From assembly GCA_963665665.1 (NCBI GenBank), contig OY762428.1:3144323-3208322 (forward strand): a stretch of 64,000 nucleotides of DNA. Reading direction: 5' to 3'. The notes under the pieces are model-generated. The model ran no database searches. It saw only the letters and a program-made list of their open reading frames with translations, and was not told where the DNA came from. Positions 17,070-52,149 of this stretch are shown piece by piece. Origin of the DNA: Candidatus Kapaibacterium sp. (GTDB taxonomy: Bacteria; Bacteroidota; Ignavibacteria; Kapaibacteriales; UBA2268). Numbering within the stretch: the first letter of the stretch is position 1; each line of letters opens with the position of its first letter. The position numbers were made by a program, and so were the translations under genes.

Positions 17070-19358
17070 ATGTCAAGATTCAGATTTCAAATAATAATAT
17101 TACTAATAATACTATTGGGGATTTCCCGGCTGTATTCAGGCGGGAGGATCTGGCATGATGCTTTGAAACGTATCGATACAGTGGACTTTGGAGTTCATTA
17201 TCCGGGCCAGTACAAGGATCATTACTTCTATATAGCAAATGACGGCCCTGAAAAACTAATGCTCGGAGCGGTCGATCCTTCATTTCTTATTGGCAGGACT
17301 CCGTCGCATCCTTATGATTTTCCGGAATTTCAGAAGCAGACAAGCGGCATAATTGAACTTGACCCCGGAGATACTGTTGCTATCATAATCAGGTATTTAG
17401 CCGAGCCTCCGCCAAAATTAGCTACCTACCCGCCGGGGAATAAAGAGGCCCGACTGCTGATGGGACTTTACGACCCGGTTAAATATCCTGACGGCGTGGA
17501 TGACAGGTCGCAGCTTGATACTGTGCGGGAATATATAATGGTTGCCAAAAAGACAATTCAACTATTGGATACTTACCGTGATGCTATTGATTTTGATTCT
17601 GTTTATGTAAATCCGCCAAATTCTTTTGAAAAAAACTGGAAAATAAAAAACAATGCTGATCAATCAATATCAATAAGTAATATTGATTATGGAATTTTTA
17701 CTCCTGTTCCTGACGGGGAGGAGTTTGAGTTTCCGGAAATAAGCGTATCGGCTCCGATACCATCAGGGCAGACAATAGGCGGATTGGTTAGCTATCATCC
17801 GCTGAACAGGGGCTCGGATAGTGCTTTTGGCAGGATAATATATATAGCCCCGGAATCTGATACAAGCGATACGGCAATAACAATATTCAGGGGATTCGGA
17901 GTTCAGCAGGAAATGAGGCTGTTTGAAACGGATACAAAAATTGATACCCTGAATTTCGGAGACCAGGACAGAATTTGCCTTAATGCCGGAAATGTCAGGG
18001 TTGGTACAAATGTCAGAATCAAGGGCAGCCTGGTGAACAAAGGGAATATTCCTTTTCATGCGCTTAGCCAAATAGTAAGAAATTATTACGATAATGAATT
18101 ATCCGGGGCTTTTTCATTTATAAGTGGTTTTGATTTAAGCCGGAACGACATTTTAACAGACGAGAAAACGGATTTTGAAATTCAGTTTCTGCCTGATAGT
18201 GCCGGTGAGTTTTTTGCCCGCTATATTATCGGAAGCGATATCAAAGAACGTAATATCTGGGGGATACCCGCTGAGGCTTCAAATGTTATTGTATATATCA
18301 GAGGGCGTGGCATAAACCCGAAAATTTCAATTCCGGATACTATTGATTTTGGTAATATTGTTGTGAATCCGCCATATTGTTCTGCTGACAGGGACACGGT
18401 AATAAAAATTTTGAATACCGGCAACGAAGAATTGCTGATAAATAACCTGGATATTACTACCGGTGATTTTGGTTTTATTCCGGGTAATCTGTCGATCCCG
18501 CAGTATTCAGCCGGGTCAATGACATTTACTTTCAGCTCAGGGGCTCTTGGCGATTCAGAATCAAAATTCAGGCTGTTCACAAACGAGAACGCCGGTTTTA
18601 ATGTTCATGAAATTATTCTGAAAGCAAGGGGGGTATTGCCACTTGAATCAAGTATATCCATTCCGGATACCAGGTCGGCCCCCGGAAGGAATATCAGTAT
18701 TCCGATTATAACCGAAGGAAGTAAGCTGGGGAATGCCAGGAATTTTGAGGATACTGTCAGCTTTGATCCTACTTCTCTGCAATTTCTCCGGACTGACCCC
18801 ATAGGAACTGCTTCAGAGGGGGCGATAATAAGCGCTGATCCTGATAATTCCAAAGGCCTGCTGTATCTTTCAATGAGAATTCCTTCCGGAGGATTTTTCC
18901 GGAACAAAGATACATTGATAAAGATTCAGTTCAGAACATATCTCGGAGACAGGATTTCATATCCTGTTGCATTTTCCGAGCCCCGAATCGGGGATGATAA
19001 ATGCTCGCACGTGATAAATTTAAACAGTGATAACGGAAGTTTTTCAATAGATTCTGTTTGCGGGTTGTCGCTTAAGGTTTATACCAAAGACGGAGGTGTT
19101 TTTAAATTTGATATGCCATCTCCGAATCCTGCAGATGAATATATTAATCTAAGTTTCGAGACAGCTTTCAAATCAAGAACAAGGATTTCAATTCATAATT
19201 CTTACGGCGAAGAAGTAAGGTCTATCAATAACAGTGTTCTTCCCGGTGGAAGATATGAATGGAGTGTGGATCTTTTGGGCCTGCCTTCAGGAACATATTA
19301 TTGTGAAATGTCCGCGGGGATTTTCAGGCAGCAAAGGATTTTTGTGATAAAAAGGTAA
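17070..19358 (+). CDS. Large secreted protein with repeated choice-of-anchor-D-like domains and a type-A T9SS C-terminal domain
   Basis: Repeats of DFG.V....G...........I.N.G...L.I; C-terminal PSPNPADEYINLSFE...GRYEWSVDLLGLPSGTYYCEMSAGIFRQQRIFVIKR. Confidence 0.55.
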   Translation: MSRFRFQIIILLIILLGISRLYSGGRIWHDALKRIDTVDFGVHYPGQYKDHYFYIANDGPEKLMLGAVDPSFLIGRTPSHPYDFPEFQKQTSGIIELDPGDTVAIIIRYLAEPPPKLATYPPGNKEARLLMGLYDPVKYPDGVDDRSQLDTVREYIMVAKKTIQLLDTYRDAIDFDSVYVNPPNSFEKNWKIKNNADQSISISNIDYGIFTPVPDGEEFEFPEISVSAPIPSGQTIGGLVSYHPLNRGSDSAFGRIIYIAPESDTSDTAITIFRGFGVQQEMRLFETDTKIDTLNFGDQDRICLNAGNVRVGTNVRIKGSLVNKGNIPFHALSQIVRNYYDNELSGAFSFISGFDLSRNDILTDEKTDFEIQFLPDSAGEFFARYIIGSDIKERNIWGIPAEASNVIVYIRGRGINPKISIPDTIDFGNIVVNPPYCSADRDTVIKILNTGNEELLINNLDITTGDFGFIPGNLSIPQYSAGSMTFTFSSGALGDSESKFRLFTNENAGFNVHEIILKARGVLPLESSISIPDTRSAPGRNISIPIITEGSKLGNARNFEDTVSFDPTSLQFLRTDPIGTASEGAIISADPDNSKGLLYLSMRIPSGGFFRNKDTLIKIQFRTYLGDRISYPVAFSEPRIGDDKCSHVINLNSDNGSFSIDSVCGLSLKVYTKDGGVFKFDMPSPNPADEYINLSFETAFKSRTRISIHNSYGEEVRSINNSVLPGGRYEWSVDLLGLPSGTYYCEMSAGIFRQQRIFVIKR

Positions 19359-33275: not shown

Positions 33276-36200
33276 ATGAAAACAAATTTAAGAATTTTAT
33301 TTTTTACAGTAATTTTTAGTACTTTTTTATCATCTTATAGCAGTGATAAGGTATATTCACAAGAATTTTGGAGCAAATCAATGGCTCCTGCCCCAAAACA
33401 TGTTACATCCTTGCAGGTTGACAGCGAGGATGTGCTTTATGCTTCTACCTGGGGCGGGGGAATGTTCCGCTCGCTTAATGACGGTGAAAGTTTTACTGAA
33501 TTGAACAACGGGCTGGATAATCTTTTTATAAATGATATTTTTGTTGACAGTGACGATAATGTTTGGGTAGGTAGCGAAGGCGGCGGAGTTTACAAACTTC
33601 CTGAAGGTACGTTGGACTGGGAGCAGATGGATGAAGGGCTTCGGCATAAAAAGGTCAGGGCAGTTACGGTAAATTCCGACGGACTGGTATTTGCAGGTAC
33701 TTATGGCGGCGGAGTTTATGTATGGAACTCAGTTGATTCAAAATGGGAAGAATGGAATATTGGCCTTCATTACATGAATATCAGCGAACTGTTTATTGCA
33801 GATAATGGCGATGTAGTTGCAGGTACTTACGGTGGTGGCTGCTATATTTCGGAAGATGACGGTATAAACTGGGCCAAAGCGAATTCCGGGTTGGGGAATT
33901 TATATATTAACCAGATAATTATGAATTCTTCGGGGGTGTTGTTCGCTGCAACAAATGGCAGGGGAATTGCCACATCTGTAAATAACGGGCTTTTCTGGAC
34001 TGAAACAGATACTGTTATGACAGACCTTAGTATTACATGTTTGGCTCTTAACGAAAGCAACGACCTGGTTGCCGGTTCCCGCACTGACGGGGTTTATTGG
34101 TTTGACGGCAGATCCTATATGGAATGGCTGCAATCGTCAATAATCAGGGGCGGAGTTACGGCCATGACTGTCAATTCCGACGGAGTGCTGTTCTGCACAA
34201 GGTCAAACTATGGCCTGTATATTAGTTCGGATAAGGGCAAAACCTGGGATTGGACAGAGTTGTTTTATGATGATGGCGGCTATGTTGCTTCATCGGACGA
34301 TACAAGGAAGAGTAAAGTTTTTGCACATAGAAAATATGATAAAACGTGGGTGACTTTTGATAACGGGAATAGCTGGCAGGGAACAACTTTACCTGATTCA
34401 AATATAATTGATTATGCAATCGACGAAAATGGATATGTTTATGCTGCCACAGAATTTTCAGGGCTTTACAAAACCGAGGACAACGGACAGACCTGGAATT
34501 ATCTTGAATATAACCAGAAAAGACTCAGCAGTGTGGCTGTAAACAGGGATGACGAGGTTTTTGTTTCAGGCTTATACATGACCGCAGGCTCCCAGCCCGA
34601 ACAAAGAACATTTATTGACAGGTCAACAGATAATGGAAGCACGTGGGAAAAAATCGATCAGCTTAATAACGAAGAAGAGGCAGTTGATATTCATATAAAA
34701 CCGGGGGGAGATATTTACTATGGAAGAAAACGAGGCGGAGTTGACAAATCAACAGATAATGGAACAACATGGACTACTCTTTCCGATATTAATTCAACCG
34801 GCTTGATCAATGCTTTCAAGATGAACAAAAAAGGATATATTTTTACCGGTAATTATGATTACCTGCATTGGAGTACTGATGATGCAGCTAATTGGGAAAT
34901 GAGCAATCTTGGAATGAGTACTCCTGAAATATCAGACATCTGCTTTAATACTTCCGACGAGATGTTCCTGATATGTGATTATGATGGCGGTATTTACCAT
35001 ATTGAAAATTCATCTATGGAATGGGATTCATCAAATGCAAGTATCTATTACGACAAGCTGAACAGCCTGGGAACAAATTCCGAAGGATATACTTTCCTTT
35101 GTTCAGATGTTATCTACCGTTCTATTGATCCGGCAAAACTTGAAGTGCCGCAATTATTATCTCCGGCATCCAACACCACAGGTATCCACATTGAAAACCT
35201 CCGGCTTGACTGGAATGCCGCTGATAATGCTGACCTATACGAATTCCAGGTATCAACAAACGATGATTTTACTTTCCGGATAGAGTATGTTGTTCAGGCG
35301 GATACTTTCAGAATACTGAACAGAACACTGGATAATAACACGGAATATTACTGGCGTGTAAGGTCAAAATTCAACAGCGCATACAGTGATTGGTCGGAAG
35401 TAAGAACTTTCCGGACAGAAATTGCTGCTCCTGAATTAATCTTCCCTGAAAATAATGCTACGGGAATAGCACAGGCTATCGAGCTTCTTTGGCATTGGCC
35501 GGACGGAGCTGAAACCTTTACGTTGAAAGTCAGCCCCAACAGCGACATGAGTGAAGAGATCATATTTGAAGAAGGTATTGAGGACAGCACTAAGATGATC
35601 AGTGGCCTGCAACCATATAAAAATTATTACTGGATGGTTAAAGCTTTCGACGAAGTAAGCGAAAGCCCATGGTCGGCAACATGGACATTCCGCACAGTTG
35701 TAGCTCCTCCCGTGCTCCGTAGCCCGGCTGATGATACATTGAACCTGAACCGGTCTGTTACAATGGAATGGTTTGAATCAACCGGCGCTGACAGATATAT
35801 TATTCAGGTAGCGAGGGACAGCCTGTTTGAAAGTATGGTATATAATGGAAATAGTTCGGAACTACTGTCGCATAATATTGATATTCTTGAGTTTAATGCT
35901 GTTTACTATTGGAAAGTCCAGGCCGGGGATAAAGATGCTTACGGGCTATTTTCAGATACCTGGAAATACACAACAGCTTATGCTCCTGTTGTGCTTACCG
36001 GGCCAGATAATGATATTATTAATACTGATACAAGCCTTGTCCTTACATGGCAGTATGAAATTGATGACTTAAAATATCATTTGCAAATTGCCAAGGATGC
36101 GGGATTCAACGATATGATCCTTGATGATACTCTCGAAACCATGTATTCTTATAATCTGAACGACCTGGAATATTATCAGGAATATTACTGGCGTATAAGA

Positions 36201-36827
36201 GTAATTAACGGCGACAGAATTGGCCTGTGGCCTGATTCAAGAAAGTTCAGAACCAGGCTTGGCCGCCCGGAACTTGATTATCCGGCTTATGATGCAAAGG
36301 AAATTGCTCTGACAATGTATGTTCGCTGGCTGGAACTGAAAGGAGCTGATTATTACAGGTTGCAGCTATCCACCGATCCCCTTTTCAATAATCCCGAGCA
36401 TGACATGGATTCAATTGAAATACAAAGAGGCGATTTCTGGTCTCTTCCAAAGAATACAAAGCATTACTGGCGGGTAAAAGGCTTTAACTCCGATGGTGAA
36501 GGACTGTGGTCGGAAACTTGGAACTTTACAACAGGAGACCCCGGAAGTGTTGTTGAAAAGCCTGCCGGAATTAGTGAAATGAAAATTTATCCCAACCCAT
36601 TCCAGTCATCTGTTTCGATAAACCTGACTGCGGCTATACCAATGAATATTGATATTGATATTGTTGATATGAGCGGGCGCGTGGTCAGATCATTACATTC
36701 GGGATACCTGAACAGCGGTGATACTGAATTAAGATGGGAACCCTCGGGATTATCCGGAGGAGTTTATTATATACGAATGCAAAGCGGATCTGATATGAGT
36801 CTTTATAAGCTTAACTATATGCCGTAA
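33276..36827 (+). CDS. Large secreted BNR/Asp-box beta-propeller plus fibronectin-III-like repeat protein with a type-A T9SS C-terminal domain
   Basis: Many SxDxGxTW-type motifs (SEDDGINW, STDNGSTW, TEDNGQTW...). Repeated ~90-aa W/Y-rich FN3-like modules. C-terminal KIYPNPFQSSVSINL...GVYYIRMQSG. Confidence 0.6.
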   Translation: MKTNLRILFFTVIFSTFLSSYSSDKVYSQEFWSKSMAPAPKHVTSLQVDSEDVLYASTWGGGMFRSLNDGESFTELNNGLDNLFINDIFVDSDDNVWVGSEGGGVYKLPEGTLDWEQMDEGLRHKKVRAVTVNSDGLVFAGTYGGGVYVWNSVDSKWEEWNIGLHYMNISELFIADNGDVVAGTYGGGCYISEDDGINWAKANSGLGNLYINQIIMNSSGVLFAATNGRGIATSVNNGLFWTETDTVMTDLSITCLALNESNDLVAGSRTDGVYWFDGRSYMEWLQSSIIRGGVTAMTVNSDGVLFCTRSNYGLYISSDKGKTWDWTELFYDDGGYVASSDDTRKSKVFAHRKYDKTWVTFDNGNSWQGTTLPDSNIIDYAIDENGYVYAATEFSGLYKTEDNGQTWNYLEYNQKRLSSVAVNRDDEVFVSGLYMTAGSQPEQRTFIDRSTDNGSTWEKIDQLNNEEEAVDIHIKPGGDIYYGRKRGGVDKSTDNGTTWTTLSDINSTGLINAFKMNKKGYIFTGNYDYLHWSTDDAANWEMSNLGMSTPEISDICFNTSDEMFLICDYDGGIYHIENSSMEWDSSNASIYYDKLNSLGTNSEGYTFLCSDVIYRSIDPAKLEVPQLLSPASNTTGIHIENLRLDWNAADNADLYEFQVSTNDDFTFRIEYVVQADTFRILNRTLDNNTEYYWRVRSKFNSAYSDWSEVRTFRTEIAAPELIFPENNATGIAQAIELLWHWPDGAETFTLKVSPNSDMSEEIIFEEGIEDSTKMISGLQPYKNYYWMVKAFDEVSESPWSATWTFRTVVAPPVLRSPADDTLNLNRSVTMEWFESTGADRYIIQVARDSLFESMVYNGNSSELLSHNIDILEFNAVYYWKVQAGDKDAYGLFSDTWKYTTAYAPVVLTGPDNDIINTDTSLVLTWQYEIDDLKYHLQIAKDAGFNDMILDDTLETMYSYNLNDLEYYQEYYWRIRVINGDRIGLWPDSRKFRTRLGRPELDYPAYDAKEIALTMYVRWLELKGADYYRLQLSTDPLFNNPEHDMDSIEIQRGDFWSLPKNTKHYWRVKGFNSDGEGLWSETWNFTTGDPGSVVEKPAGISEMKIYPNPFQSSVSINLTAAIPMNIDIDIVDMSGRVVRSLHSGYLNSGDTELRWEPSGLSGGVYYIRMQSGSDMSLYKLNYMP

Positions 36828-38290: not shown

Positions 38291-38318
38291 CCCTATGTAC
38301 ATAGATCGACACGTTCCA

Positions 38319-38346
38319 AAGCGCCCCCCGATAGGGCGCTTTTTCA
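38319..38346 (+). terminator. Rho-independent terminator directly after nuoB
   Basis: agcgccc-cccgata-gggcgct followed by ttttt. Confidence 0.6.
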
Positions 38347-38566
38347 ATTTATAAATATTGATTGTATGGTTAAAGCTATTATAGCCAATTATTTGCATCT
38401 ATAATCATAGTTATAGTAATAATACGTTAAACTTGAACAACTAAAATCATATCTAAAAGTATATATATAGGGTTAACTATCGGGCAACTATTTCGTTATA
38501 TTAATTAAGAGAGTAATTCGTTCTTTGAAAAGCAGCAAAAAAAAAACCGTGAAAAATCACGGTTTG

Positions 38567-38652
38567 TACTCGGAGTGGGACTTGAACCCACACGAACCTT
38601 ACGATTCCCAGGATTTTAAGTCCTGTGCGTCTACCAATTCCGCCATCCGAGC
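38567..38652 (-). tRNA. tRNA-Leu (anticodon UAA), type II with a long variable arm
   Basis: The reverse complement GCTCGGATGGCGGAATTGGTAGACGCACAGGACTTAAAATCCTGGG...GGTTCAAGTCCCACTCCGAGTA folds with a 7-bp acceptor stem, anticodon loop CTTAAAA and T-loop GTTCAAGTCC. Confidence 0.85.
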
Positions 38653-38805
38653 GGAATTCAAAATTAATTATATTTTTTGTATTTGCAAAAGTAATTCTTA
38701 AAATATAAAAAATAAAATTGTGAGTGCAACTATTAGTTATTAGATTTGTCAATTAAAGTATTGAAAAACAATTATAAAATATAAATACCCGAACAGGAGG
38801 GCAAA

Positions 38806-40410
38806 ATGAAATTATTTATCAAATACAGCGGAATAGCATTACTGGCAGTATGGATACTCCAGTCCTGCTCGTCGGTTCAGGGCGAAAAAGACGACTATTT
38901 CGGCTATAATAACAATCCCGACCCTATCGAAAGCCCTGCCAGGGTCTCCGAGTCCGATGCAATCAGGAAAGCTGAGACTAAAGATGCCTGGACTAATCCT
39001 CTTGCCGGCAGTTCCGAAGAAGCTTCCTATACTGGTGGCGAAAACTATGTTCAGGAGGATGGTGCTAACCAGACAGTAGTGCAGTACACTTATTACAACA
39101 CAAGCCCGGTTTATGTTCCTGTAATGGTGCCCTGGTGGAGCCAGCATTACTGGTGGAAAAACCGCAGGAGCCATTTCAGTGTTTATGTTAATTACGGCCC
39201 GTACTGGTATGATCCTTACTACAGGGATCCATGGTATTATGCCTATTACACTCCCTGGTATGATTATCATCCATATTACGGCGGGTACTGGGTGAATTAC
39301 CACCATTGGAATTCCTACCATCCCAGGTATCACCACGTTCCTTATGGCTATTACGCCCGGGAAAGGGATAAAATCGTTAAAAAGGACAGGAATTTCGGGC
39401 CTTCACGCGGATATACCCATAATCCTAATACAGGACTCTCGGCAGATAATATGAACAGAGGCAGTCGTTCGGGTTCCACAAATACATCCGGAATTGCAAG
39501 TTCACGGGGTACAAGCGGCGGATCATTGAAAAGGGGCACAACAACCGGGATTTCTTCCATTGACCGTTCGGGCAGGACAGCTACGCTTGCTGATAACAAA
39601 ACTGCAAGTTCCACTGCCGGCGGTGCTTTCAAGAAAATTACCACACCGGAAAAAAGCAGTTCCAAATCATCTGCTGTTCCGGTTAGGAATACCGGATTAT
39701 ATACCGGGAATTCCGGGAACTTATCTTCATCCTCTTCAAGGAACTCTACAATAAAGGGAATTTCAAATCCTTCTTCAGGGTCGAGAATACAGTCCAGGCC
39801 TTCAGCAAATTATACCGGAACTCAAAGCAGGTCTTCGAGCGCCGGTACTAATACAAAGAGTTCCCTTACCCCGCGAAGCAGTGGTTCCTCTTCCAAAACA
39901 ACATTGAAGCGAGGCTCTACCTATAGTGGAAGCAGCAGGAACAGTTCATCAACTAACAGAAGTTCAACTCCGGTTCTCAAGAGTCCCGTATCAAGAAGTA
40001 CCCCCTCTTCAGGCAGTGTTAAATCAACAAGGCCTTCGTACAGTCCTTCGAGCAGTCCGAGAGTGAAGTCGAACAGGTCAGGAAGTTCAAGTTCAAAATC
40101 AACAATTAAATCTCCGCGATCATCCAGGTCGGGATCATCTTCCGGATCATCATACTCATCCCCGAGAAGCAGTTCTTCTAAAAGTTCTTCACGTTCTACT
40201 TATTCGCCACCGAAAAGATCTTCGACTCCCAAATCTTCCGGGTCTTCATATAAAGCTCCAAGAAGTTCGGGATCGTCAAGTTCTTCACGTTCTTCAGGGT
40301 CGTCATATAAGCCGTCAGGCTCTTCTTCGTCATCTAAATCCTCAGGATCAAGATCATCAGGAAGCAGCAGCAGTTCAAGTTCACCGAAAAGAGGCAGCCG
40401 CGGGCGTTGA
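38806..40410 (+). CDS. Lipoprotein with a Tyr/Trp/His/Pro-rich block and a ~330-aa Ser/Arg/Lys-rich low-complexity tail
   Basis: Lipobox ILQSC; PWWSQHYWWKN...YYRDPWYYAYYTPWYDYHPYYGGYWVNYHHW; then ...SSGSSYKAPRSSGSSSSSRSSGSS.... Ser is encoded by all six codons, so this is not a simple nucleotide repeat. Confidence 0.55.
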   Translation: MKLFIKYSGIALLAVWILQSCSSVQGEKDDYFGYNNNPDPIESPARVSESDAIRKAETKDAWTNPLAGSSEEASYTGGENYVQEDGANQTVVQYTYYNTSPVYVPVMVPWWSQHYWWKNRRSHFSVYVNYGPYWYDPYYRDPWYYAYYTPWYDYHPYYGGYWVNYHHWNSYHPRYHHVPYGYYARERDKIVKKDRNFGPSRGYTHNPNTGLSADNMNRGSRSGSTNTSGIASSRGTSGGSLKRGTTTGISSIDRSGRTATLADNKTASSTAGGAFKKITTPEKSSSKSSAVPVRNTGLYTGNSGNLSSSSSRNSTIKGISNPSSGSRIQSRPSANYTGTQSRSSSAGTNTKSSLTPRSSGSSSKTTLKRGSTYSGSSRNSSSTNRSSTPVLKSPVSRSTPSSGSVKSTRPSYSPSSSPRVKSNRSGSSSSKSTIKSPRSSRSGSSSGSSYSSPRSSSSKSSSRSTYSPPKRSSTPKSSGSSYKAPRSSGSSSSSRSSGSSYKPSGSSSSSKSSGSRSSGSSSSSSSPKRGSRGR

Positions 40411-40438
40411 TAACATAATTATTATGGAGAGGTAAAAA

Positions 40439-41857
40439 ATGAAAAAGTTAATTTTAATATTGATCGGAATTATTTTAATAAGTCCTGTTGCAAAATCGCA
40501 GTTTATCGAAGATGCTCTGAGGTTTTCACAACCCAATAGTATCATCACTGCCAGGGCAGGCGGCCTTGGTACTGCATTCCACGGTGTTAGTGATGATTTC
40601 TCAGCTCTGTATTATAATCCTGCCGGATTGTCGCTTATGCAGAAAAGGGAGCTTACTTTTGGCTTTGGATTCCTGAGAAATACTACTGAAACAGATTATC
40701 ATGACGTTGTAATGGATTTATCTGCAAATGATGCTTACCTTAGCCACTTTGGTATTGTAGCTCCTTTCACAACGAGTAAGGGTAAGGCTGCAATAGCTAT
40801 CGGCTATATGCTGGAATCCAATTTTGACAATACCTACGATTTCAGCGGGTTCAACCAGAACTCTACATATATTGACTTCCGCGCTCGTAATGACGGTGAA
40901 GATAATATGCCTTATTATCTGAATCTGGCAGATCTGAAAGGAGAGTCAATCTTTACACCTGTAACCGACAGCCTGCTTCAGGAAGGTAGCGTTATAGAAA
41001 ATGGCGGACTTCACAATATTACAGGCGGCGCCGGATTCGACCTTAATAAAAACGTATCAATAGGTTTCTCGGTTACCGGAAAATGGGGAACTTATGATTT
41101 CAACAGGGAATACATGGAAAAAGACATTTTCAACAAGTACAATGAATTCGTAAGTGATTATTCGAATGTTGACCTGGATTACATGAAGGTTGAAGAGCAG
41201 ATAACCCAGAATATCTCCGGTATAACCGGTTCTGTTGGAATCCAGGGTCGTGTTGGCGAGAATATCCGCCTTGGTGTGGGAGTAAAGTTCCCGACTTTCT
41301 ATTCTATTGAAGAAAACTATTGGGAAGAAGCAACTGCCGGATTTGATAATGGCGATTATATTACTGAGCCTTATCAAAATGAAGGAGAAACATCGTACAA
41401 ACTGAGATCACCATGGATATTTTCGGCAGGTTTGTCGGTTCATGCTATGGGTATCACTTTCACGAGCGGCGTGGAATACTGCGATGTTACACAGATTGAA
41501 TTCTCAGATGCCACGAAAGCGGTTGAATCTTTGAATAAGTATATCCTTAGGGAACTTGTAGGCCAGACTACATGGGGATTCGGAGTTGAATATGACATTC
41601 CGATGATGCCATTCGTTGTAAGGGGTAGTTTTAGTTCTACCACTTCGCCATATTCAGAAGATGTTCCGGGTGCTACACTATCGAACCTTTCCCTTGGCGG
41701 AGGTGTTTATCTGGCAAAGAATGTCAGGATAGACGGACTCTTCAGGTTTTCCGACCTGACACAGGTTCGTTCTAATTACGGAACTGACGAAAGTGCAAGA
41801 TATACTTATAATGTTAGCCCGCTTAATATCGCGATGCAGCTTACCTACAGATACTGA
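40439..41857 (+). CDS. FadL/TodX-family-like outer-membrane beta-barrel protein (the family that includes T9SS PorV)
   Basis: Signal peptide; the N-terminal ALRFSQPNSIITARAGGLGTAFHGVSDDFSALYYNPAGLS matches the FadL-family NPAG motif region; ends with aromatic YRY. Confidence 0.55.
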   Translation: MKKLILILIGIILISPVAKSQFIEDALRFSQPNSIITARAGGLGTAFHGVSDDFSALYYNPAGLSLMQKRELTFGFGFLRNTTETDYHDVVMDLSANDAYLSHFGIVAPFTTSKGKAAIAIGYMLESNFDNTYDFSGFNQNSTYIDFRARNDGEDNMPYYLNLADLKGESIFTPVTDSLLQEGSVIENGGLHNITGGAGFDLNKNVSIGFSVTGKWGTYDFNREYMEKDIFNKYNEFVSDYSNVDLDYMKVEEQITQNISGITGSVGIQGRVGENIRLGVGVKFPTFYSIEENYWEEATAGFDNGDYITEPYQNEGETSYKLRSPWIFSAGLSVHAMGITFTSGVEYCDVTQIEFSDATKAVESLNKYILRELVGQTTWGFGVEYDIPMMPFVVRGSFSSTTSPYSEDVPGATLSNLSLGGGVYLAKNVRIDGLFRFSDLTQVRSNYGTDESARYTYNVSPLNIAMQLTYRY

Positions 41858-41882: not shown

Positions 41883-41916
41883 AGCCCTGACCTTTGAAGT
41901 TAGGGCTTTTTTTTTT
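41883..41916 (+). terminator. Rho-independent terminator after the FadL-like gene
   Basis: agccctga-cctttgaag-ttagggct hairpin followed by T10. Confidence 0.55.
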
Positions 41917-42000: not shown

Positions 42001-43311
42001 TTGATCATGAAATATTTATGGTATTTTATACTTGTTATAATGTTATTATCCTGCGGGGAGGACAATCCTTCAACACCCGGTGACGGCGGCCCTTATCCTG
42101 ATGATAATGTGGTCTGCGATATTGAATACAGGGACGATGCCATGATTGTTGAATCATCTGCCTTGCTAACTTGCGATACTGTCAACCCTGAATCTGCATT
42201 CGATGAAAAAATTATTAACCTGACTGTTGATAAAGAACTTTTTGGCCCGCCGCCTATGGCCGGGGATGTTTTTTTTATTAAAGGGTATGGCACGAGAAAA
42301 GTTATATCAGTTGATGATCATGGTTCATTCATGATAATTGAAAGTGAATTTGCAGCGCTTACCGAAGCAGTAAAAAATGCTAATATATCATGGGATTTTA
42401 CGCCTGTTATTGAAGAACCGGGGATAATCAACGTTGAAGGTGTTGATCACAGGCCCGTAAGGATAAGCACCGAAGGTTATGAATACAGCTTTGAATGGGG
42501 TAATAATAAATATACCTTATGGTTCAATCCTAAAGGAACAAGTGAAAACGGCCTGCCTGAAATGCAGGTGAATTTTATTGTTGAGAATAAAATTGATGCT
42601 GATGGAAAAGTTACTGCAACTTACGGTGCCAAGGGAACAACAAGGCTTCCGCATATTTCAGCCGATATTGATATTCAGGACAGTGAACTAACCGGATTTA
42701 CAACAAACAACAGCGGTTACCACAGTGAATTTACTCTTGAATATATTGCTACGTTTTCCCCGGGCAGCGAAGGCACTCAGATACTGACAATGCCGAATAT
42801 TACTTTGAAAGTGCCGCTTCAGTCGCTTACTGCTATTCCTATTCCGATTCCTATATATATTAACTTTGGCCTGGGATTCCAGACTTATCTTAATCTTCCG
42901 CAAGTTCAGGCTTTTTGCAATGCAAAGGTGAAAATGATAATGGACTCGAAAACAGGTTTTGAATTTAAAGGGCCAAGCGTGGGATTCAACTATAAGGTGG
43001 GTAAAAAGGATCTTGGTGACTGTACTTTCGAAGTAGGGGACCTTTCGCTTTGCCCCACCGGAATTGAAATGAAATGGGAAGTATTATGCCCGAGAATTGC
43101 CCTGAATGTTATGGGGCAGGAGGTTTGCTGGATTGCTCCTATATTCGGAAGCAGGACTAAACTGATAGTGCCTTCGCTTTGCAAGGCGCAGATGACACAG
43201 GTCAGGCTGGAAGGCGGTTACGGATTTAAAATTTTTGGAAATAGTATAGCAGAAGGAAAAAAAGTTTTTTTCAATGCTGATAAAACTTATAAATCACCGG
43301 AATGTCCTTAA
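42001..43311 (+). CDS. Hypothetical lipoprotein (436 aa)
   Basis: Signal plus lipobox (MLLSCGED); no catalytic motifs recognised. Confidence 0.45.
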   Translation: MIMKYLWYFILVIMLLSCGEDNPSTPGDGGPYPDDNVVCDIEYRDDAMIVESSALLTCDTVNPESAFDEKIINLTVDKELFGPPPMAGDVFFIKGYGTRKVISVDDHGSFMIIESEFAALTEAVKNANISWDFTPVIEEPGIINVEGVDHRPVRISTEGYEYSFEWGNNKYTLWFNPKGTSENGLPEMQVNFIVENKIDADGKVTATYGAKGTTRLPHISADIDIQDSELTGFTTNNSGYHSEFTLEYIATFSPGSEGTQILTMPNITLKVPLQSLTAIPIPIPIYINFGLGFQTYLNLPQVQAFCNAKVKMIMDSKTGFEFKGPSVGFNYKVGKKDLGDCTFEVGDLSLCPTGIEMKWEVLCPRIALNVMGQEVCWIAPIFGSRTKLIVPSLCKAQMTQVRLEGGYGFKIFGNSIAEGKKVFFNADKTYKSPECP

Positions 43312-43864
43312 TTATATTAATTGCGAGGTTAACTTGGATTCGATTTTAAACGAAGATATTATCCCGAAAATACTTGTTGTTGACGACTCAACAACTTTGC
43401 TTTCGTTGATAAAAGGTGTATTAACCGTAAACAAATATGAAGTGATTACTGCTGAAAGCGGAGCAGCTGCTATTGAAACAGCATATAATGATTTTCCTGA
43501 CCTTATATTACTTGATATAATGATGCCGGGAATGGATGGTTTTGAGACCTGTAAAATATTAAAAAGCAACGAAATTACAGCAAATATTCCTGTAATATTC
43601 CTGACTGCAAAAACATCAAAGCAGGATATAGTGGAAGGGCTTGAATGCGGCGGGGTTGACTACATTACAAAACCATTTGATAATAAAGAATTGCTTGCCA
43701 GAATTTATACTCATCTTGAACTTAAATATGCACGGCAAATAATTGAAGAGCAGAAAATTGAATTGGAAAATCTTGTTGAGGAACTTCGTATAAGCAATGA
43801 AATGCTTGAAGAAAGAACTCATGACCTTCTTGTTTTAAGAGAAAAAATGGGTGAATCAGATTAG
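43274..43864 (+). CDS. Response-regulator receiver protein with a C-terminal coiled coil (no DNA-binding domain)
   Basis: ILVVDDS...LLDIMMPGMDGFE...VIFLTAKT...GGVDYITKPF receiver motifs; C-terminal EEQKIELENLVEELRISNEMLEE heptads. The start may be internal. Confidence 0.7.
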   Translation: MLIKLINHRNVLNYINCEVNLDSILNEDIIPKILVVDDSTTLLSLIKGVLTVNKYEVITAESGAAAIETAYNDFPDLILLDIMMPGMDGFETCKILKSNEITANIPVIFLTAKTSKQDIVEGLECGGVDYITKPFDNKELLARIYTHLELKYARQIIEEQKIELENLVEELRISNEMLEERTHDLLVLREKMGESD

Positions 43865-47402: not shown

Positions 47403-49721
47403 CTATTGGATAACTAATTTGAAATCAAAAATTTTATCAGAGGAAGTTACCTTAATAAAATATGCTCCATTTAATAAATCACCCGGTAATTTGTACTGAA
47501 TATCCTGGCGTATGGCTCCGAAAAGAGATAGTTTTTCTTTCTTTATCGTTCTTCCGCTAAGGTCAATCAATTCAATTATTGTCTCACCGGCAAATTCATC
47601 ATTCAAAGTCAAAGTAATCAAAGAGCCGGGATGAGCGGGATTAGGAAAAATATTTGCCTTAATGCCCTGGGTTTCTTCAACTGATGTGATCGGATTATAT
47701 TCTATAGCGCATAAAAAGCCTGCATCATGTTGATATGGAAAATGAGGATCAAAGGCATTGTATATCGGAAAATCATAGCTTTCTGTCATTCCTGATAGAT
47801 ATATTCTTCCTGTACTGTCAATTGCCGATCCTCTCAATTCATTGAACCACCCTCTTCCTGCAAGATATGAACAATATAAAACACTATCCAACTTACTACT
47901 TATTACCATAACAAAGCCTCTGTTTTCACCCAGAAATTGACTATCCGTCGTTGTTAATGCATCATTTGTAACATCTAATTCTCCCCCTTGTCCTGTTCCT
48001 GATACAATATAACAATTATCAGGAGTCCGGTCAAACTGAATCATATCATAAGGGTAGGTTTGTCCGTATGTTGAAATTATCTCATTTCCGCTCAAAATGT
48101 TCTTTTTAATTAAGAACAATACCATACCAGATTCTGTATCCGTAGTTTTATGTGCTCCTGGAGTAGTGGTAATATCTTCTTCCTCTGTCAAGCCAAATAT
48201 TTGAAAATTGTTGTTACCAGAATATAATACATATTGGATTCTAAGTAACTCCTCATATGTTTGGTATAATGTAGTTTTATAGTCTGATAAATCTAAAAGA
48301 CTATAATATGCAGAATCGATTTCTGTTGAATAAACATCAACACCTGATAAACAAAGCGTATCTTCAAAAAGAGTACAAAACATTAACTCGGTTTGTTTTC
48401 CTCTTCCGTAATACGAAGAGAATTTAATTTCAGAACCATTAGCGCCTAAAATTGTTATAAATCCGTCAAATTTCTGTTTCTTTTCTTTTCGTATAGCATT
48501 TTCGGTTGTAAATATATTTGTATTTTCATTAATCGATCCAACATGATAACAATTACCTTTGTCGTCTATTTCAATAAAATCATGGGAAAAATAACCATCT
48601 GCTATTTCCCAAAAAGAACCATTATATAAAGAATCACCTGTATTCGATAGATTTACTGAATAATACATATCATTTCTAATAGAAAAATCAGGATTTCCCA
48701 AATATGCATGATCACAAACAGGCATAGTATCTCTTGAAAAACCATATAACTTATAGGAACCATCATTAAGAAAGGCTATTTTATGTATCATGAATTCCGG
48801 AAAATGACTTAACCACAAAGGATATTTCCCGTCCCTGTCAAAACAGCATACGACTCCTTCGACTTCTCCCCGTGCAATATTATATCTTTTCAATGAATCA
48901 GGGAAATACATTTTATCAAAAATGTACATTCCGAAAACCGGATTATTATCCTGATTAACACAAATTGACAATCCTGATGCATCGGCCCCCCCAAGAAAAG
49001 TTGAAAAAACTGTCGGATCGATTATCAATTCCTCTGTTTCGTCATATTTACCGAGTTTAAATGTCAGGTGCTTGCCGTCGTAAATAACAGGTGAACAATC
49101 TATTGGCTGCAATTGATATTCAGATTTTTGAAAAGCTTTCAGCGCCCCGTGCGTATATTCTACATTACCTGAAACAACTTTGAAGTTGCCATTATCAGAA
49201 TAATCAAGATGCCCCTCGCCTTGGAATTCAATTTTCAAATTACCTGGATTAGCACCGGGAGGAAGGATAATATCATATCTCGGTTTGTGACTATCAATTG
49301 TCAGTTTCAGGCTAAAATCCTGGTAATCAACCGTTATTTCACGATAAGATTTAACCGAAACGGCTTTATTGCTTTTATGATCATAAAAGTAATTATGAAC
49401 AGTCGGTTTCTCACCATTGGTATTCAAATTAATAACTTTATTGCGTTGATTGTCTGATGAAAATAACAACATATAGGCGCAACCGATTATGGTATCATGA
49501 GCATTTGATTCATATTTACCGGGGCTTTTCAGCCCCGGTTTAATATTATAATGATCAAATACAAGCCCGTCCCCGGTTATCCATACATTGATACCATCAG
49601 CAGAAGCTTTGGCCAATATGTTTTCCGGCCACTGCCCGGCGTTCGGAATAATGGATTCTTCGGAATAAACAAATCCGGCGGAAAGGAATAAAATACAAAA
49701 TAAAACTACTGCATTTCTCAT
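47403..49721 (-). CDS. Hypothetical secreted protein with a type-A T9SS C-terminal domain
   Basis: Signal peptide; C-terminal IKANIFPNPAHPGSLITLTLN...GRTIKKE...LLNGAYFIKVTSSDKIFDFKLVIQ. Confidence 0.55.
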   Translation of the reverse strand: MRNAVVLFCILFLSAGFVYSEESIIPNAGQWPENILAKASADGINVWITGDGLVFDHYNIKPGLKSPGKYESNAHDTIIGCAYMLLFSSDNQRNKVINLNTNGEKPTVHNYFYDHKSNKAVSVKSYREITVDYQDFSLKLTIDSHKPRYDIILPPGANPGNLKIEFQGEGHLDYSDNGNFKVVSGNVEYTHGALKAFQKSEYQLQPIDCSPVIYDGKHLTFKLGKYDETEELIIDPTVFSTFLGGADASGLSICVNQDNNPVFGMYIFDKMYFPDSLKRYNIARGEVEGVVCCFDRDGKYPLWLSHFPEFMIHKIAFLNDGSYKLYGFSRDTMPVCDHAYLGNPDFSIRNDMYYSVNLSNTGDSLYNGSFWEIADGYFSHDFIEIDDKGNCYHVGSINENTNIFTTENAIRKEKKQKFDGFITILGANGSEIKFSSYYGRGKQTELMFCTLFEDTLCLSGVDVYSTEIDSAYYSLLDLSDYKTTLYQTYEELLRIQYVLYSGNNNFQIFGLTEEEDITTTPGAHKTTDTESGMVLFLIKKNILSGNEIISTYGQTYPYDMIQFDRTPDNCYIVSGTGQGGELDVTNDALTTTDSQFLGENRGFVMVISSKLDSVLYCSYLAGRGWFNELRGSAIDSTGRIYLSGMTESYDFPIYNAFDPHFPYQHDAGFLCAIEYNPITSVEETQGIKANIFPNPAHPGSLITLTLNDEFAGETIIELIDLSGRTIKKEKLSLFGAIRQDIQYKLPGDLLNGAYFIKVTSSDKIFDFKLVIQ

Positions 49722-49725
49722 TATA

Positions 49726-52149
49726 TTACCTGTTTATTTGCAAAGATTTATTATCAATAATAATTCGACCGTCTTTTGTTAGTAGAATTATATTAACAAT
49801 ATACTGACCGGACGGCAAAGAAGCAACATCCAAAGAAATATCATTACTGTTTTGCGATAAGTTTTTGACGCTTTCGTCTATATACTTTTTGCCATTGCCA
49901 TCGTAAATTACTACGGATATTTCTTTTGGAGATTTTGCGCCTATATATAGGTTTATGACATCAATTGCAGGATTTGGGAATATCCCGTCCGAATCAAAAG
50001 ATTTGTTATTTTTTATGTTGGGATATAAAGTTTTGCCGCTGATAATTATTGTCGGAGCATCATAAGAATCACGTCCCGGATCATCCGCAATCTTAGCTTT
50101 ACATGCGCTTACTTTCCACGAACCGGCTGGAGGTGGGACAGATTGAACCCCCATCCAGCATTCATAAGCTCTTTGGTCATTAACATATTGCACAACATTA
50201 ATTGAGTCCCATTCGTTGTTACCATTCAGTTTATATATCTTGTAATAATCCTCAGCATTCTTATATAAATCAGGAGATTCTTTATCCCAGGAATAATTGA
50301 TATCGTCATCGTAAGAGCGACTTTGCCAATGGAAAACAAAACCATTAGCATCATTTGTATAATGTAATCCTTTGATCTGTGCAGACCGCATAGTAGCTAT
50401 CGGCTGACTTAATGAATACATGTTGTCAAAAATAAGATCCATTGATTCTTCAAGCTCATCGTTAGGAACAATATAAGCTTTGAAGGAATTATAAAATTCA
50501 TTTTTTGGAATAGTTTGTTCTCTGGGTTCAGATGATTTCAGATCGGGAAATAAACTGACAAACTCAAATAGAATTCGACCCAATGAAACATCTTCATTAT
50601 CTAATCCAAAGAAAGGGCTTGCTCCAAAATCTGAATCATCATAACAATCATATAAATTGTGCATTAAACCTGCCATTCTGGAAATTCTCTGCTTATAATC
50701 CCAACGGGATCCATTGGTTCCCCATGGAGCAACCTTAGGAAAACGCCTCCCTTGTGAATCAAACCTGAACGGATCGGCTTCATACGAGTATGAAGTATTG
50801 TAATACTCATAATCATAATTATTTGAAGCCCATTGCTGGCATTCTTCAGCAAAAAATCTTGCAAATCCTTCACTAAAAGTTTGAGTTCCAGGTATACCAG
50901 TAGTAGGCCTACCAGCCATACTATGATGTACATAATGAGCATATTCATGATACATAACAATTATATAATTGTCACAGGAAATAGTTGTCATAAGATCAGC
51001 ATTACTAGCTGAATACTGACCGGATATGTTTGTTTGAGTGCCCCAAAAAAATCTAATACATGGTATGTCGAAAGACATATTATTGTCAAATACAGCTTTA
51101 ATGAATTCGTTTGCAATTGTGTTATACCTTAATGCTCTCCCTTCAAGTTTTCTCATTTGCAAATCAACATTATTAACTGTGTAAGATGTTGTAGAATTAT
51201 TGATAGGAATTACAGATCTGGCATCTTTACTTTCTGACAATAGAGACTGTGATCTATAATTAGAATTTACATTATGCACTACATCAAATATATCAGTTTC
51301 AGTCATAAAGATAACATCATTTTCAAGGCTGGCTACAATTAGTATTTCCCAATTTTCTTGATCATCAAATTCAAATCCTGAAAATGAGAAATTAAATTGG
51401 TAATTACCATCTTTATCACATTTGGCATAATGTATTCCTTCTATATACTCAGCTGTTGAACCAGACCCTGAAAGTGGAACTGGATGATATAATCGCCAGT
51501 ATTCCTCTCCTATAGGAATCTTTTTCTCTCTGAACCACAGCCTTACATAAGGAAAAGTTGTGTAGTCTTCACAACCATCAAATTTATTCCAATCACCATA
51601 AGTAACATTTCCTGAAATATTGAATGTATAGACGTTTGAAATAGATGGATTTAAAAAGGAAGTAGTAAGTATTTCATAGAATTCATAATTTTCAAATGGT
51701 ATATCCAGTTCTATACCAGATAATGGATCACTGTGTGTCGAAATTGTAGTAGCAACATCAACCGTAAAATCAATTTGTTCACCATTTTCGAAATTTGGGG
51801 ATAGATTTTGAATATCCAATCGAATACTTGCAAGTCCCGTATCCTGAACTATTAGTTCATAATCGACTGTGTATGTCGAACTTTCTTGTACAACATGATA
51901 ATCGAAAATTCTTTTTTCTGTGTTTGAAGCATCCTCATCCTTATAAACTGGATCAAAAGAAATTCCTACCCAAAGAGTATCAGTAACATTAGCTTCGAAA
52001 ACAGCTCGAACAGTAACAGTATCCCCTAAAATCGGATCGTCAATAACAGAAAATGAACTTAGATTAGCAAGCGGAGGATCAGGAAAGGATTCTGATCTCA
52101 AAGTACTAATTAAAAATAAAAAACATAAGAAAACACATAAGTATTTCAT
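49726..52149 (-). CDS. Secreted putative zinc metalloprotease (HExxH) with a type-A T9SS C-terminal domain
   Basis: IVMYHEYAHYVHHSMAG zincin-like motif; C-terminal IFPNPAIDVINLYIG...LPSGQYIVNIILLTKDGRII. Confidence 0.5.
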   Translation of the reverse strand: MKYLCVFLCFLFLISTLRSESFPDPPLANLSSFSVIDDPILGDTVTVRAVFEANVTDTLWVGISFDPVYKDEDASNTEKRIFDYHVVQESSTYTVDYELIVQDTGLASIRLDIQNLSPNFENGEQIDFTVDVATTISTHSDPLSGIELDIPFENYEFYEILTTSFLNPSISNVYTFNISGNVTYGDWNKFDGCEDYTTFPYVRLWFREKKIPIGEEYWRLYHPVPLSGSGSTAEYIEGIHYAKCDKDGNYQFNFSFSGFEFDDQENWEILIVASLENDVIFMTETDIFDVVHNVNSNYRSQSLLSESKDARSVIPINNSTTSYTVNNVDLQMRKLEGRALRYNTIANEFIKAVFDNNMSFDIPCIRFFWGTQTNISGQYSASNADLMTTISCDNYIIVMYHEYAHYVHHSMAGRPTTGIPGTQTFSEGFARFFAEECQQWASNNYDYEYYNTSYSYEADPFRFDSQGRRFPKVAPWGTNGSRWDYKQRISRMAGLMHNLYDCYDDSDFGASPFFGLDNEDVSLGRILFEFVSLFPDLKSSEPREQTIPKNEFYNSFKAYIVPNDELEESMDLIFDNMYSLSQPIATMRSAQIKGLHYTNDANGFVFHWQSRSYDDDINYSWDKESPDLYKNAEDYYKIYKLNGNNEWDSINVVQYVNDQRAYECWMGVQSVPPPAGSWKVSACKAKIADDPGRDSYDAPTIIISGKTLYPNIKNNKSFDSDGIFPNPAIDVINLYIGAKSPKEISVVIYDGNGKKYIDESVKNLSQNSNDISLDVASLPSGQYIVNIILLTKDGRIIIDNKSLQINR

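Follow-up and report, generated by a model that had tools for sequence, protein, structure and literature searches.

The window analysed here, a 64,000-nucleotide stretch of DNA from Candidatus Kapaibacterium sp., carries two adjacent forward-strand genes, one for a lipoprotein of unusual composition and one for an outer-membrane barrel (Table 1). They form a two-gene unit, preceded by a single promoter-like site and closed by a single terminator. The promoter candidate lies downstream of the nuoB terminator (38318-38342) and of an opposite-strand tRNA-Leu gene (38566-38652). The FadL-like barrel gene that a first-pass annotation of the window had placed just behind the lipoprotein gene is indeed there, and its product has a FadL fold. 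The same annotation had raised the possibility of an assembly chimera. An independent ENA assembly (L009, 99.4% identical) contains the same 534-codon lipoprotein ORF, with five substitutions, four of them synonymous, and no indels. An assembly chimera is therefore unlikely, and the ORF is confirmed as real. Farther downstream, a lipoprotein-like ORF (42001-43311) was weighed as a possible third component; it was dropped, since other loci do not keep it beside the pair.

Table 1. Features of the lipoprotein-barrel locus, in window positions.
Feature	Position	Strand	Remarks
Sigma-70-like promoter candidate for the two-gene unit	38746..38775	+	Consensus scan; pattern match only
Shine-Dalgarno AGGAGG	38795..38800	+	5 nt ahead of the lipoprotein ATG; read from sequence
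Lipoprotein gene	38806..40410	+	534 aa and stop; founding window member of an unnamed family
Signal peptide and lipobox LQS-C	38806..38868	+	Cys21, predicted from the letters as the lipidated first mature residue
Conserved post-Cys segment C-SSVQGEKDD-YFGYNNNP	38866..38919	+	Candidate docking segment
W-x-N-P-L motif, aa 62-66	38989..39003	+	W62, N64, P65 invariant or at least 90% conserved
Aromatic block, aa 103-187	39112..39366	+	YVPVMVPWW ... YYTPWYDYHPYYG ...
R-x-F-G-P-x-R-G motif, aa 195-202, head/tail boundary	39388..39411	+	R195, G198, R201 at least 90% conserved
Polycationic tail rich in Ser/Gly/Thr/Arg/Lys/Pro, aa 203-534	39412..40407	+	S-Y-x(1,2)-P motifs; net charge about +48
Basic C-terminal end ...KRGSRGR-COOH	40387..40407	+	Family: R at -3 in 42/61, R/K at -1 in 54/61
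Spacer between lipoprotein and barrel genes, 28 nt	40411..40438	+	SD-like GGAGAGG at 40426-40432; no terminator
Partner outer-membrane barrel, 472 aa, FadL fold	40439..41857	+	14 strands, N-terminal hatch, conserved mature N-terminus QFIEDALR
Intrinsic-terminator-like hairpin and T-run	41883..41907	+	End of the two-gene unit

The lipoprotein assignment made in the first-pass annotation is borne out. The signal peptide is followed by a match to the lipobox pattern [LVI][ASTVI][GAS]C (MKLFIKYSGIALLAVWILQS followed by C21), which predicts lipidation, and the cysteine is invariant in the family alignments. The segment behind it has the family consensus C-[SA]-[ST]-T-x-G-[ST]-[RK]-[DE]-[DE]-Y-F-G-Y-N-N-x-P, with a spacing from Cys to YFGY of 8–12 residues in 92 family members and of 9–11 in 88 of these 92. 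Residues 23–105 are acidic (charge −9.5). The 85 residues of the aromatic block include 23 Tyr, 9 Trp, 8 His and 9 Pro, together 58%. This block, whose conservation had been left to be checked, retains the motifs YVPV(I/V)VPWW and DWYSPWYxYHPYYG throughout the family alignments. AF2 modeling of the N-terminal 211 residues gave no fold (pLDDT 57 overall and below 50 in the aromatic block), from an alignment of 41 sequences that is shallow enough for an absent fold not to be proof of disorder. The lipoprotein appears to be intrinsically disordered, its conserved N-terminal half included, for which no fold is predicted.

The tail, taken as residues 196–534 (339 aa), consists of 38% Ser, 11% Gly, 9% Thr, 9% Arg, 6% Lys and 6% Pro. 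It contains only four acidic residues (Asp and Glu together), and has a net charge of about +48 and a pI of 12. The earlier description of the tail as more than half serine holds for its last ~135 residues (53%) but not for the tail as a whole. The use of all six serine codons is confirmed by the codon count for the gene (TCA 38, TCT 24, AGT 24, TCC 22, AGC 18, TCG 17). A DNA microsatellite is rejected, as TRF finds only two trivial two-copy matches and no real tandem repeat. Across 61 family tails, Y-x-P and Y-x-x-P are enriched (z about 11), and so is a C-terminal R-x-R motif. In related pairs, the dN/dS is about 0.11–0.20 for the tail versus 0.05–0.12 for the N-terminal half, and the tail of the 99.4%-identical strain shows four synonymous versus no nonsynonymous changes. 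A net-positive low-complexity tail with a basic C-terminus is present in nearly all full-length members listed. The proposal that selection at the protein level shapes the composition thus stands, given the low dN/dS, the conserved tail motifs and the retention of tails in orthologues. Orthologues with a missing or frameshifted tail, named beforehand as evidence that would speak against it, are not what the family presents.

Two further assignments were considered and rejected. The O-glycosylation motif of Bacteroidota is D-[ST]-[AILVMT], and since the tail has almost no Asp, such glycosylation is unlikely. A search with Pfam found no C-terminal sorting domain in the lipoprotein, so it was not taken as a T9SS substrate.

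At E ≤ 1e-3, the lipoprotein family comprises 98 cluster representatives among 1.84 billion, and all of the matches start near residue 1. Every member is unnamed, and those with a named source are Kapabacteria/Ignavibacteria-type MAGs; the members derive from groundwater, activated sludge and many other metagenomes. Pfam and NCBIfam gave no match to the lipoprotein, searched whole, as its N-terminal half and through two relatives, also at E ≤ 10. A PDB sequence search at E ≤ 10 with the N-terminal profile and the consensus post-Cys peptide returned chance antibody matches only, with no BamH chain among them. This is an undescribed protein family.

The pairing with a FadL-like barrel, which the first-pass annotation had suggested following in relatives, is kept. 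The lipoprotein gene lies immediately upstream of the barrel gene in every locus with enough upstream DNA, except in one high-GC subclade, where the barrel is present without an adjacent lipoprotein partner. The barrel can therefore work alone or with a partner encoded elsewhere. In relatives, the gap between the two genes ranges from −4 to +29 nt, and they often overlap. The flanking genes differ at every locus, and no fatty-acid or aromatic catabolic genes are conserved beside the pair.

The AF2 model of the barrel is confident (pLDDT 91) and has the 14-strand FadL fold that is characteristic of BamG. In this model, a FadL-type hatch (helices 23–66) fills the lumen. Foldseek places BamG of B. 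thetaiotaomicron, F. johnsoniae and P. gingivalis at the top of its PDB matches; structurally, FadL and TodX match just as well, at 10–16% sequence identity. The barrel profile found nothing among PDB sequences at E ≤ 0.01, and at E ≤ 10 its only match was BtBamG (E 0.025). The N-terminal 69 residues of the barrel gave chance antibody matches only in the PDB. Among NCBIfam models, that for BamG (NF053685) is matched by the most orthologues (43 of 63; best E 5.7e-12 among the 63), and the window barrel scores 31.2 bits against it, far below the cutoff of 250 bits. The Pfam family Toluene_X (PF03349) reaches 29.0 bits against a cutoff of 29.7, and a precomputed PF03349 match is present in many barrel orthologues. 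A weak match of PorV_fam (NCBIfam) to the hatch region stays at 30 bits, under the 90-bit threshold.

The N-terminus of the barrel adds to this picture. An NPA hatch motif occupies residues 60–62, and the distance from the mature Q21 to N60-P-A is 39 residues, compared with 32 in E. coli FadL (register taken from the N33A/P34A mutants), about 7 residues longer. Among barrel orthologues, Q21 and D25 are invariant, and I23, E24, A26, L27 and R28 are at least 90% conserved. BamG carries an N-terminal extension of ~10–12 residues beyond FadL, which exits through a lateral opening (PMC12611786; PMC12578637). At the other end, the last strand of the AF2 model reaches residue 471 of 472, and the barrel thus has no C-terminal tail. 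In BamG, a C-terminal extension contacts BamD, and the protein associates tightly with the back of BamA (PMC12611786; PMC12578637). Neighboring bamH and bamG genes are known from many FCB phyla, including those of Ignavibacterium album (IALB_1454/1455), Salinibacter, Fibrobacter, Gemmatimonas, Caldithrix and Chitinophaga (PMC12611786; PMC12578637). The first-pass annotation had not brought out the kinship of the barrel with BamG or the bamH-bamG pairs typical of FCB phyla.

The relation between the two proteins was examined through their charges in 24 dereplicated lipoprotein-barrel pairs, with the barrel topology assigned from AF2 secondary structure and a short-turn/long-loop rule rather than from coordinates. 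The positive charge of the tail correlates inversely with the charge of the whole barrel (rho −0.75) and with that of its predicted extracellular part (rho −0.78, p 6e-6), and phylogenetic contrasts retain the latter relation (r −0.65, p 6e-4). The tail charge shows no significant correlation with the periplasmic turns (rho +0.22), and the value for the hatch is −0.08. The extracellular region is the largest part of the barrel (227 of 472 residues) and therefore has the most room to vary in this comparison. Its predicted charge is −32 in the window barrel and only −6 to −8 in barrels without an adjacent partner. Thus, the positive charge of the tail tracks the negative charge of the predicted outer face of the barrel, and not that of the periplasmic turns.

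We propose that the disordered outer-membrane lipoprotein is a dedicated partner of the FadL/BamG-type barrel encoded next to it and forms a charge-matched cap at the cell surface, a reading to which we would give an even chance. The lipobox suggests that the lipoprotein would be exported by Sec, lipidated and cleaved at LQS-C21. From the operon structure seen at these loci, the pair would be co-transcribed and, in relatives, translationally coupled; both proteins would therefore be made together, perhaps as a 1:1 complex. Motifs in the N-terminal ~200 residues (YFGYNNxP at Cys+10, WxNPL, YVPV(I/V)VPWW, DWYSPWYxYHPYYG and RxFGPxRG) may then engage the barrel close to the membrane, docking onto or against it. 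The model for this step is the conserved lipidated N-terminus of BamH, which binds BamG and is wedged into it (PMC12611786; PMC12578637). Both the adjacency to a BamG-like barrel and the conserved post-Cys segment are present here, and the post-Cys segment is the candidate docking element. The remaining 330 residues would extend on the cell-surface side as a flexible chain, rich in Ser and polycationic, whose charge of +48 is matched to the acidic extracellular crown of the barrel (−32) and presumably also to anionic LPS. In this way, the barrel could be covered by a "fuzzy" cap or brush of polyelectrolyte. The setting is most likely outer-membrane biogenesis or maintenance, because the named relatives closest to the barrel are BamG proteins and because the lipoprotein gene lies where bamH would.

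The lipoprotein is probably surface-exposed, sitting on the barrel. [quoted passage not shown] Surface exposure is therefore unsupported by the one available sequence rule, a rule that was defined for Bacteroidota and may not transfer to the host lineage.

Complexes that join a barrel and a surface lipoprotein typify the FCB superphylum, and it was not until 2025 that BamG and BamH were described as an extension of BAM. The family described here indicates that the lipoprotein slot beside a BamG-like barrel can hold a protein for which no fold is predicted. Nothing is conserved in this protein beyond short motifs, charge and a basic C-terminus, and its charge co-evolves with the outer face of the barrel. 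If confirmed, the pair would constitute a bacterial functional fuzzy complex on the cell surface and provide a handle on the outer-membrane biology of uncultured Kapabacteria/Ignavibacteria lineages.

A more specific form of this proposal, which we regard as unlikely, is that the pair is a Kapabacteria-type BamH-BamG. The barrel would bind the back of BamA, and the folded BamH would give way to the disordered lipoprotein, an energy-independent canopy or holdase that covers the BAM folding site from the extracellular side. The gene arrangement is that of bamH and bamG in FCB phyla (PMC12611786; PMC12578637). The host also belongs to the FCB group and has T9SS substrates. BamG provides the top Foldseek matches, the only PDB sequence match and the most often matched NCBIfam model, and the longer, nearly invariant mature N-terminus of the barrel recalls the extension described for BamG. 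The lipoprotein family has a conserved segment of ~17 residues starting at the lipidated Cys, as does BtBamH. However, the barrel remains far below the NCBIfam BamG cutoff and ends at its last strand, without the tail through which BamG touches BamD. BamH is folded, two-domain or arch-shaped, whereas the lipoprotein has no predicted fold, resembles neither the BamH chains of the PDB nor any NCBIfam model in searches at E ≤ 10, and has its acidic export signal moved from +1..+6 to +7..+9.

An extended form of the same idea, which we consider speculative, is that a wholly disordered "sticker-and-spacer" lipoprotein has taken the place of BamH, the folded extracellular canopy of BAM, in Kapabacteria-type bacteria and caps the BamG barrel at the cell surface as a fuzzy, charge-matched polyelectrolyte. 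Its parts would be the Tyr/Trp-rich head and the Arg/Lys/Ser tail, which possibly self-associate through cation-pi interactions. If true, this would be the first intrinsically disordered protein to serve as an extracellular component of outer-membrane biogenesis.

It is also conceivable, although in our view unlikely, that the lipoprotein is anchored in the outer membrane's inner leaflet and faces the periplasm. The basic tail would then bind peptidoglycan or anionic phospholipids or regulate the barrel from below, with the lipoprotein as a tether or plug; in an RcsF-like alternative, the chain would be threaded through the barrel. The near absence of the canonical Bacteroidota export signal is in keeping with such a location. 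Long disordered basic linkers are also known in periplasm-spanning lipoproteins such as RcsF. RcsF-OmpA/C/F resembles the present pair in that a disordered, positively charged segment of the lipoprotein is functionally linked to a barrel of the outer membrane and to the charge of LPS. There is no homology, however; RcsF possesses a folded domain at its C-terminus and passes through porins that are open, whereas the barrel here is plugged and the whole lipoprotein appears disordered. The hatch-filled lumen predicted by AF2 leaves little room for a threading chain, and the charge co-variation maps to the predicted extracellular face rather than to the periplasmic turns or the hatch. Both observations speak against this reading.

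Alternatively, the barrel could be a true FadL-type channel that imports hydrophobic or aromatic compounds, with the lipoprotein as a substrate-capture accessory, the Tyr/Trp-rich block binding hydrophobic ligands and the tail reaching into the surroundings. The equally good structural matches to FadL and TodX, the NPA motif and the near-cutoff Toluene_X score agree with this reading, which we nevertheless consider quite improbable. Catabolic genes are not conserved beside the pair, whose flanks differ from locus to locus, and it is hard to see what a polycationic, Ser-rich tail would contribute to the capture of lipids. The classical E. coli FadL and Pseudomonas TodX, in contrast, act alone, without a dedicated lipoprotein. 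The charge matching between tail and barrel points instead to a structural pairing. Among FadL-like barrels of the FCB group, PorV and PorQ, shuttle and anchor barrels of the T9SS, bind other proteins by way of their extracellular loops.

Another possibility goes back to the first-pass annotation, which had noted a silaffin-like composition and named biomineral or polyanion binding as candidate roles. The tail would act at the surface as a polycation for binding or nucleating silica or another anionic mineral or polymer, in the manner of silaffins or CotB1; we judge this very unlikely. The composition does resemble silaffin peptides such as R5, which are likewise Ser/Lys/Arg-rich, and the family C-termini (...GSRGR, ...SSGRRGR, ...SSGRGR) resemble the ...SSRGR-like ending of the silica-binding tag of Bacillus cereus CotB1, SGRARAQRQSSRGR, and SB7, RQSSRGR (PMC11818168). 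However, any polycation binds silica, and the likeness is therefore not specific. The family members come from the wide set of metagenomes listed above, and the scaling of tail charge with the charge of the partner barrel suggests that the counter-ion is the barrel or the envelope. Unlike silaffin R5 and the CotB1 tag, the lipoprotein is tied to a barrel, and the likeness of its tail to silaffins, SR proteins and the CotB1 silica tag, compared by composition only, is compositional only. The polycationic tail may still serve as a natural silica- or polyanion-binding tag.

Finally, the reading of the tail as non-functional low-complexity drift or an assembly artefact, to which its low-complexity sequence and a run of N inside the tail of one relative (L003) might lend some color, is effectively refuted by the identical-length ORF in an independent assembly, by the tails of nearly all listed full-length members and their dN/dS of about 0.1–0.2, and by the enrichment of internal and C-terminal motifs in tails that no tandem DNA repeat underlies.

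The gene at 38806-40410 is real and encodes an unusual lipoprotein that is under selection. It represents, in the window, a so far undescribed family (about 100 clusters) of probably disordered lipoproteins that accompany a BamG-like barrel in bacteria of the Kapabacteria/Ignavibacteria type. By sequence, its N-terminus is a signal peptide with the lipobox LQS-C21. An acidic region (residues 23-105, charge -9.5) is followed by an aromatic block (residues 103-187) containing 23 Tyr, 9 Trp, 8 His and 9 Pro per 85 residues. The tail (residues 196-534) is composed of 38% Ser, 11% Gly, 9% Thr, 9% Arg, 6% Lys and 6% Pro; no more than four of its residues are acidic, and it has a net charge of +48/+49 and a pI of 12. 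The first-pass annotation put Ser above 50%, which is true of the last ~135 residues (53%) and not of the tail as a whole. All six Ser codons are indeed in use, and the gene is not a DNA microsatellite, because Tandem Repeats Finder gives just two trivial two-copy matches. The G+C content of the gene (47% vs 39% for the window) is explained by the demand for Ser, Arg, Gly and Pro codons rather than by foreign origin.

Coordinates of the features discussed, in window positions
Feature	Position	Strand	Basis or remark
Lipoprotein ORF, 534 codons	38806-40410	+	sequence
AGGAGG, 5' of lipoprotein ORF	38795-38800	+	sequence
Partner barrel, 472 aa	40439-41857	+	AF2 pLDDT 91: FadL-type barrel with N-terminal hatch
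tRNA-Leu (anticodon taa), between nuoB and lipoprotein gene	38566-38652	-	
ORFs within lipoprotein gene	38839-39336; 39351-39665; 39560-39754	-; -; +	long antisense/alternative-frame by-products of biased composition, no genes
ORF over tRNA-Leu	38501-38752	-	read-through of tRNA-Leu
ORF, 436 aa	42001-43311	+	lipobox-like start LLSCGEDNPS
CheY-like response regulator	43274-43864		start overlapped by end of the 436-aa ORF
Four large proteins with T9SS C-terminal sorting domains	17070-19358; 33276-36827; 47403-49721; 49726-52149	+; +; -; -	one with beta-propeller/BNR and fn3-like repeats

The N-terminal 220 residues retrieved one relative in a word-indexed search, and a profile built from six sequences retrieved 16. 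HMMER, run in full over 1.84 billion cluster representatives, gave 98 family matches at E<=1e-3, of which 66 reached E<=1e-10; nearly all start at residue ~1. The named members are "hypothetical proteins" from Kapaibacteriales or "Bacteroidota" MAGs, and no member has a match in Pfam or NCBIfam. In the alignments the lipobox Cys is family-wide and opens the motif C-[SA]-[ST]-T-x-G-[ST]-[RK]-[DE]-[DE]-Y-F-G-Y-N-N-x-P, with a Cys-to-YFGY distance of 9-11 residues in 88/92 members. The short motifs W-x-N-P-L and R-x-F-G-P-x-R-G are also kept. The aromatic block, raised earlier as a possible conserved domain, retains Y-V-P-V-(I/V)-V-P-W-W and D-W-Y-S-P-W-Y-x-Y-H-P-Y-Y-G across the family in profile/HMMER searches and alignments. 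AF2 of residues 1-211 with a shallow, 41-sequence alignment yielded no fold (mean pLDDT 57); the signal helix alone was confident, and the aromatic block stayed below 50. Taken with conservation confined to motifs, this result suggests a protein without a fold of its own that may become ordered when it binds a partner.

Nearly all full-length members listed carry a low-complexity, net-positive tail of ~65-370 residues made up of S/G/T/N/P/R/K; the window's tail is the most charged of these and one of the longest. Compared with shuffled tails, Pro is strongly over-represented two or three residues after Tyr (z about 11), and it never follows Tyr directly; [ST]-Y-[KSTV]-[SPA]-P was observed 17 times against 1.1 expected. 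At the C-terminus, R occupies position -3 in 42/61 members and R/K position -1 in 54/61. Among six reasonably close pairs, dN/dS was 0.11-0.20 for the tail and, where computable, 0.05-0.12 for the N-terminal half. These values are rough, as dS approaches saturation and low-complexity sequence aligns imperfectly, but they lie far from neutral. Orthologues without the tail had been named as evidence against selection at the protein level; the orthologues keep constrained tails, and the claim therefore stands. Some segments of the window tail (39412-40407), for example RPSYSPSSSPR, resemble the RNA polymerase II CTD heptad. The likeness is probably compositional, but the enrichment of Y-x(1,2)-P is strong. 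True short repeats occur in relatives' tails, namely PSYxAPSRSSS three times (L004/L006) and TTTSPSRS six times (P0016).

A chimeric assembly, also named as a possible refutation, is argued against by L009, an independently assembled ENA contig with 99.4% identity across 7 kb, where the 534-codon ORF is intact. The two copies differ by five substitutions and no indel; four of the five are synonymous, all four within the tail. In the barrel gene of L009 (2633-4050), loss of one base (at window 40755) splits the reading frame into parts of 106 and 349 aa; the cause is an error of long-read assembly or else a pseudogene specific to that strain. The lipoprotein gene of L009 has no such break. In another relative, L003, an N run (~5500-5700; masked sequence or a scaffold gap) lies inside the Ser-rich tail, a sign that assembly of these tails is difficult.

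The next gene does begin 28 nt after the lipoprotein gene, and by its AF2 model it encodes the FadL-like barrel noticed earlier. No terminator-like sequence separates them, and the barrel gene is followed by a strong terminator. Upstream of the pair are a terminator after nuoB, the opposite-strand tRNA-Leu and a promoter-like site. In relatives the distance between the two genes is -4 to +29 nt. An HMM of the lipoprotein N-terminal half, run over the retrieved loci, placed the lipoprotein directly 5' of the barrel in every locus with enough upstream DNA, one subclade excepted. This high-GC subclade (L032, L041-L049, L052) has no partner lipoprotein within 3.5 kb of the barrel, whose gene there lies directly 3' of alanine dehydrogenase. 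The other neighbors change between loci, and thus the conserved unit is the pair alone. The 436-aa ORF, with no Pfam/NCBIfam match, is not conserved beside the pair in relatives and was rejected as a third component.

BamG, the FadL-like barrel of the Bacteroidota BAM complex, is the barrel's nearest named relative. In Foldseek against the PDB, the best matches were the BamG chains of B. thetaiotaomicron, F. johnsoniae and P. gingivalis BAM; FadL and TodX came next. The sole match of the barrel family profile among PDB sequences was BtBamG (E 0.025, around a common GGLH motif). The NCBIfam BamG model was the most frequent match of the orthologues (43/63, best E 5.7e-12), ahead of PorV_fam (29/63), both far below cutoff. 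Family membership is not established, since the BamG equivalog cutoff was not reached, the AF2 model has no C-terminal tail beyond the last strand, and the N-terminal extension relative to FadL, although almost invariant among orthologues, is ~7 residues.

We regard the co-variation of their charges as the strongest evidence at hand for a functional coupling of the two proteins and for a tail on the outside. The window barrel has a net charge of -23. Topology was assigned from the AF2 strands (14 after merging two bulged ones), with short turns placed in the periplasm and long loops outside the cell; on this basis the extracellular part carries -32, the periplasmic turns +5 and the hatch 0. 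Across 24 dereplicated pairs, tail charge correlates with whole-barrel charge (Spearman -0.75, p 3e-5) and with that of the inferred extracellular part, the largest region (-0.78, p 6e-6), and not with the periplasmic turns (+0.22) or hatch (-0.08). The signal is distributed over loops L1, L2, L3 and L6 and survives independent contrasts on an NJ tree, a crude correction (r -0.65, p 6e-4). Where no partner is adjacent, the predicted extracellular face of the barrel is near neutral, at -6 to -8 vs -32 in the window. We propose as the likeliest mechanism, at roughly even odds, that the N-terminal motifs would dock on the barrel and that the polycationic tail would lie at the cell surface, charge-matched to the barrel's acidic crown.

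A similar arrangement was shown in 2025, in two papers on Bacteroidota BAM, where BamG sits on the back of BamA and the conserved lipidated N-terminus of the surface lipoprotein BamH (BtBamH residues 18-34) is wedged in BamG (PMC12611786, PMC12578637). Neighboring bamG/bamH genes are listed for Ignavibacterium album (IALB_1455/1454), Salinibacter, Fibrobacter, Gemmatimonas, Caldithrix, Chitinophaga and BamG2/H2 paralogues (Supplementary Table 1; PMC12611786, PMC12578637). The present lipoprotein gene likewise adjoins the gene for a BamG-like barrel, and the genome is of FCB type; the four sorting-domain proteins indicate that the host has a type IX secretion system. However, the lipoprotein has no similarity to BamH and no predicted fold, and no test run placed it in the BamH family. 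Of 92 members, just one has acidic residues at +1..+6 that fit the export signal of Bacteroidota; the family has an [RK]-[DE]-[DE] triad at +7..+9 in its place. By analogy, the lipoprotein may at best work like a BamH-type docked partner. That the pair acts in BAM is plausible, unproven and rather unlikely.

Of still lower probability is the earlier idea that the tail binds a mineral or polyanion. The family C-termini ...GSRGR, ...SSGRRGR and ...SSGRGR do look like the silica tag of B. cereus CotB1, SGRARAQRQSSRGR, and like SB7, the half of it that reads RQSSRGR (PMC11818168), but the likeness is compositional and any polycation would have it, and the matching of tail and barrel charges suggests that the counter-charge is the envelope itself.
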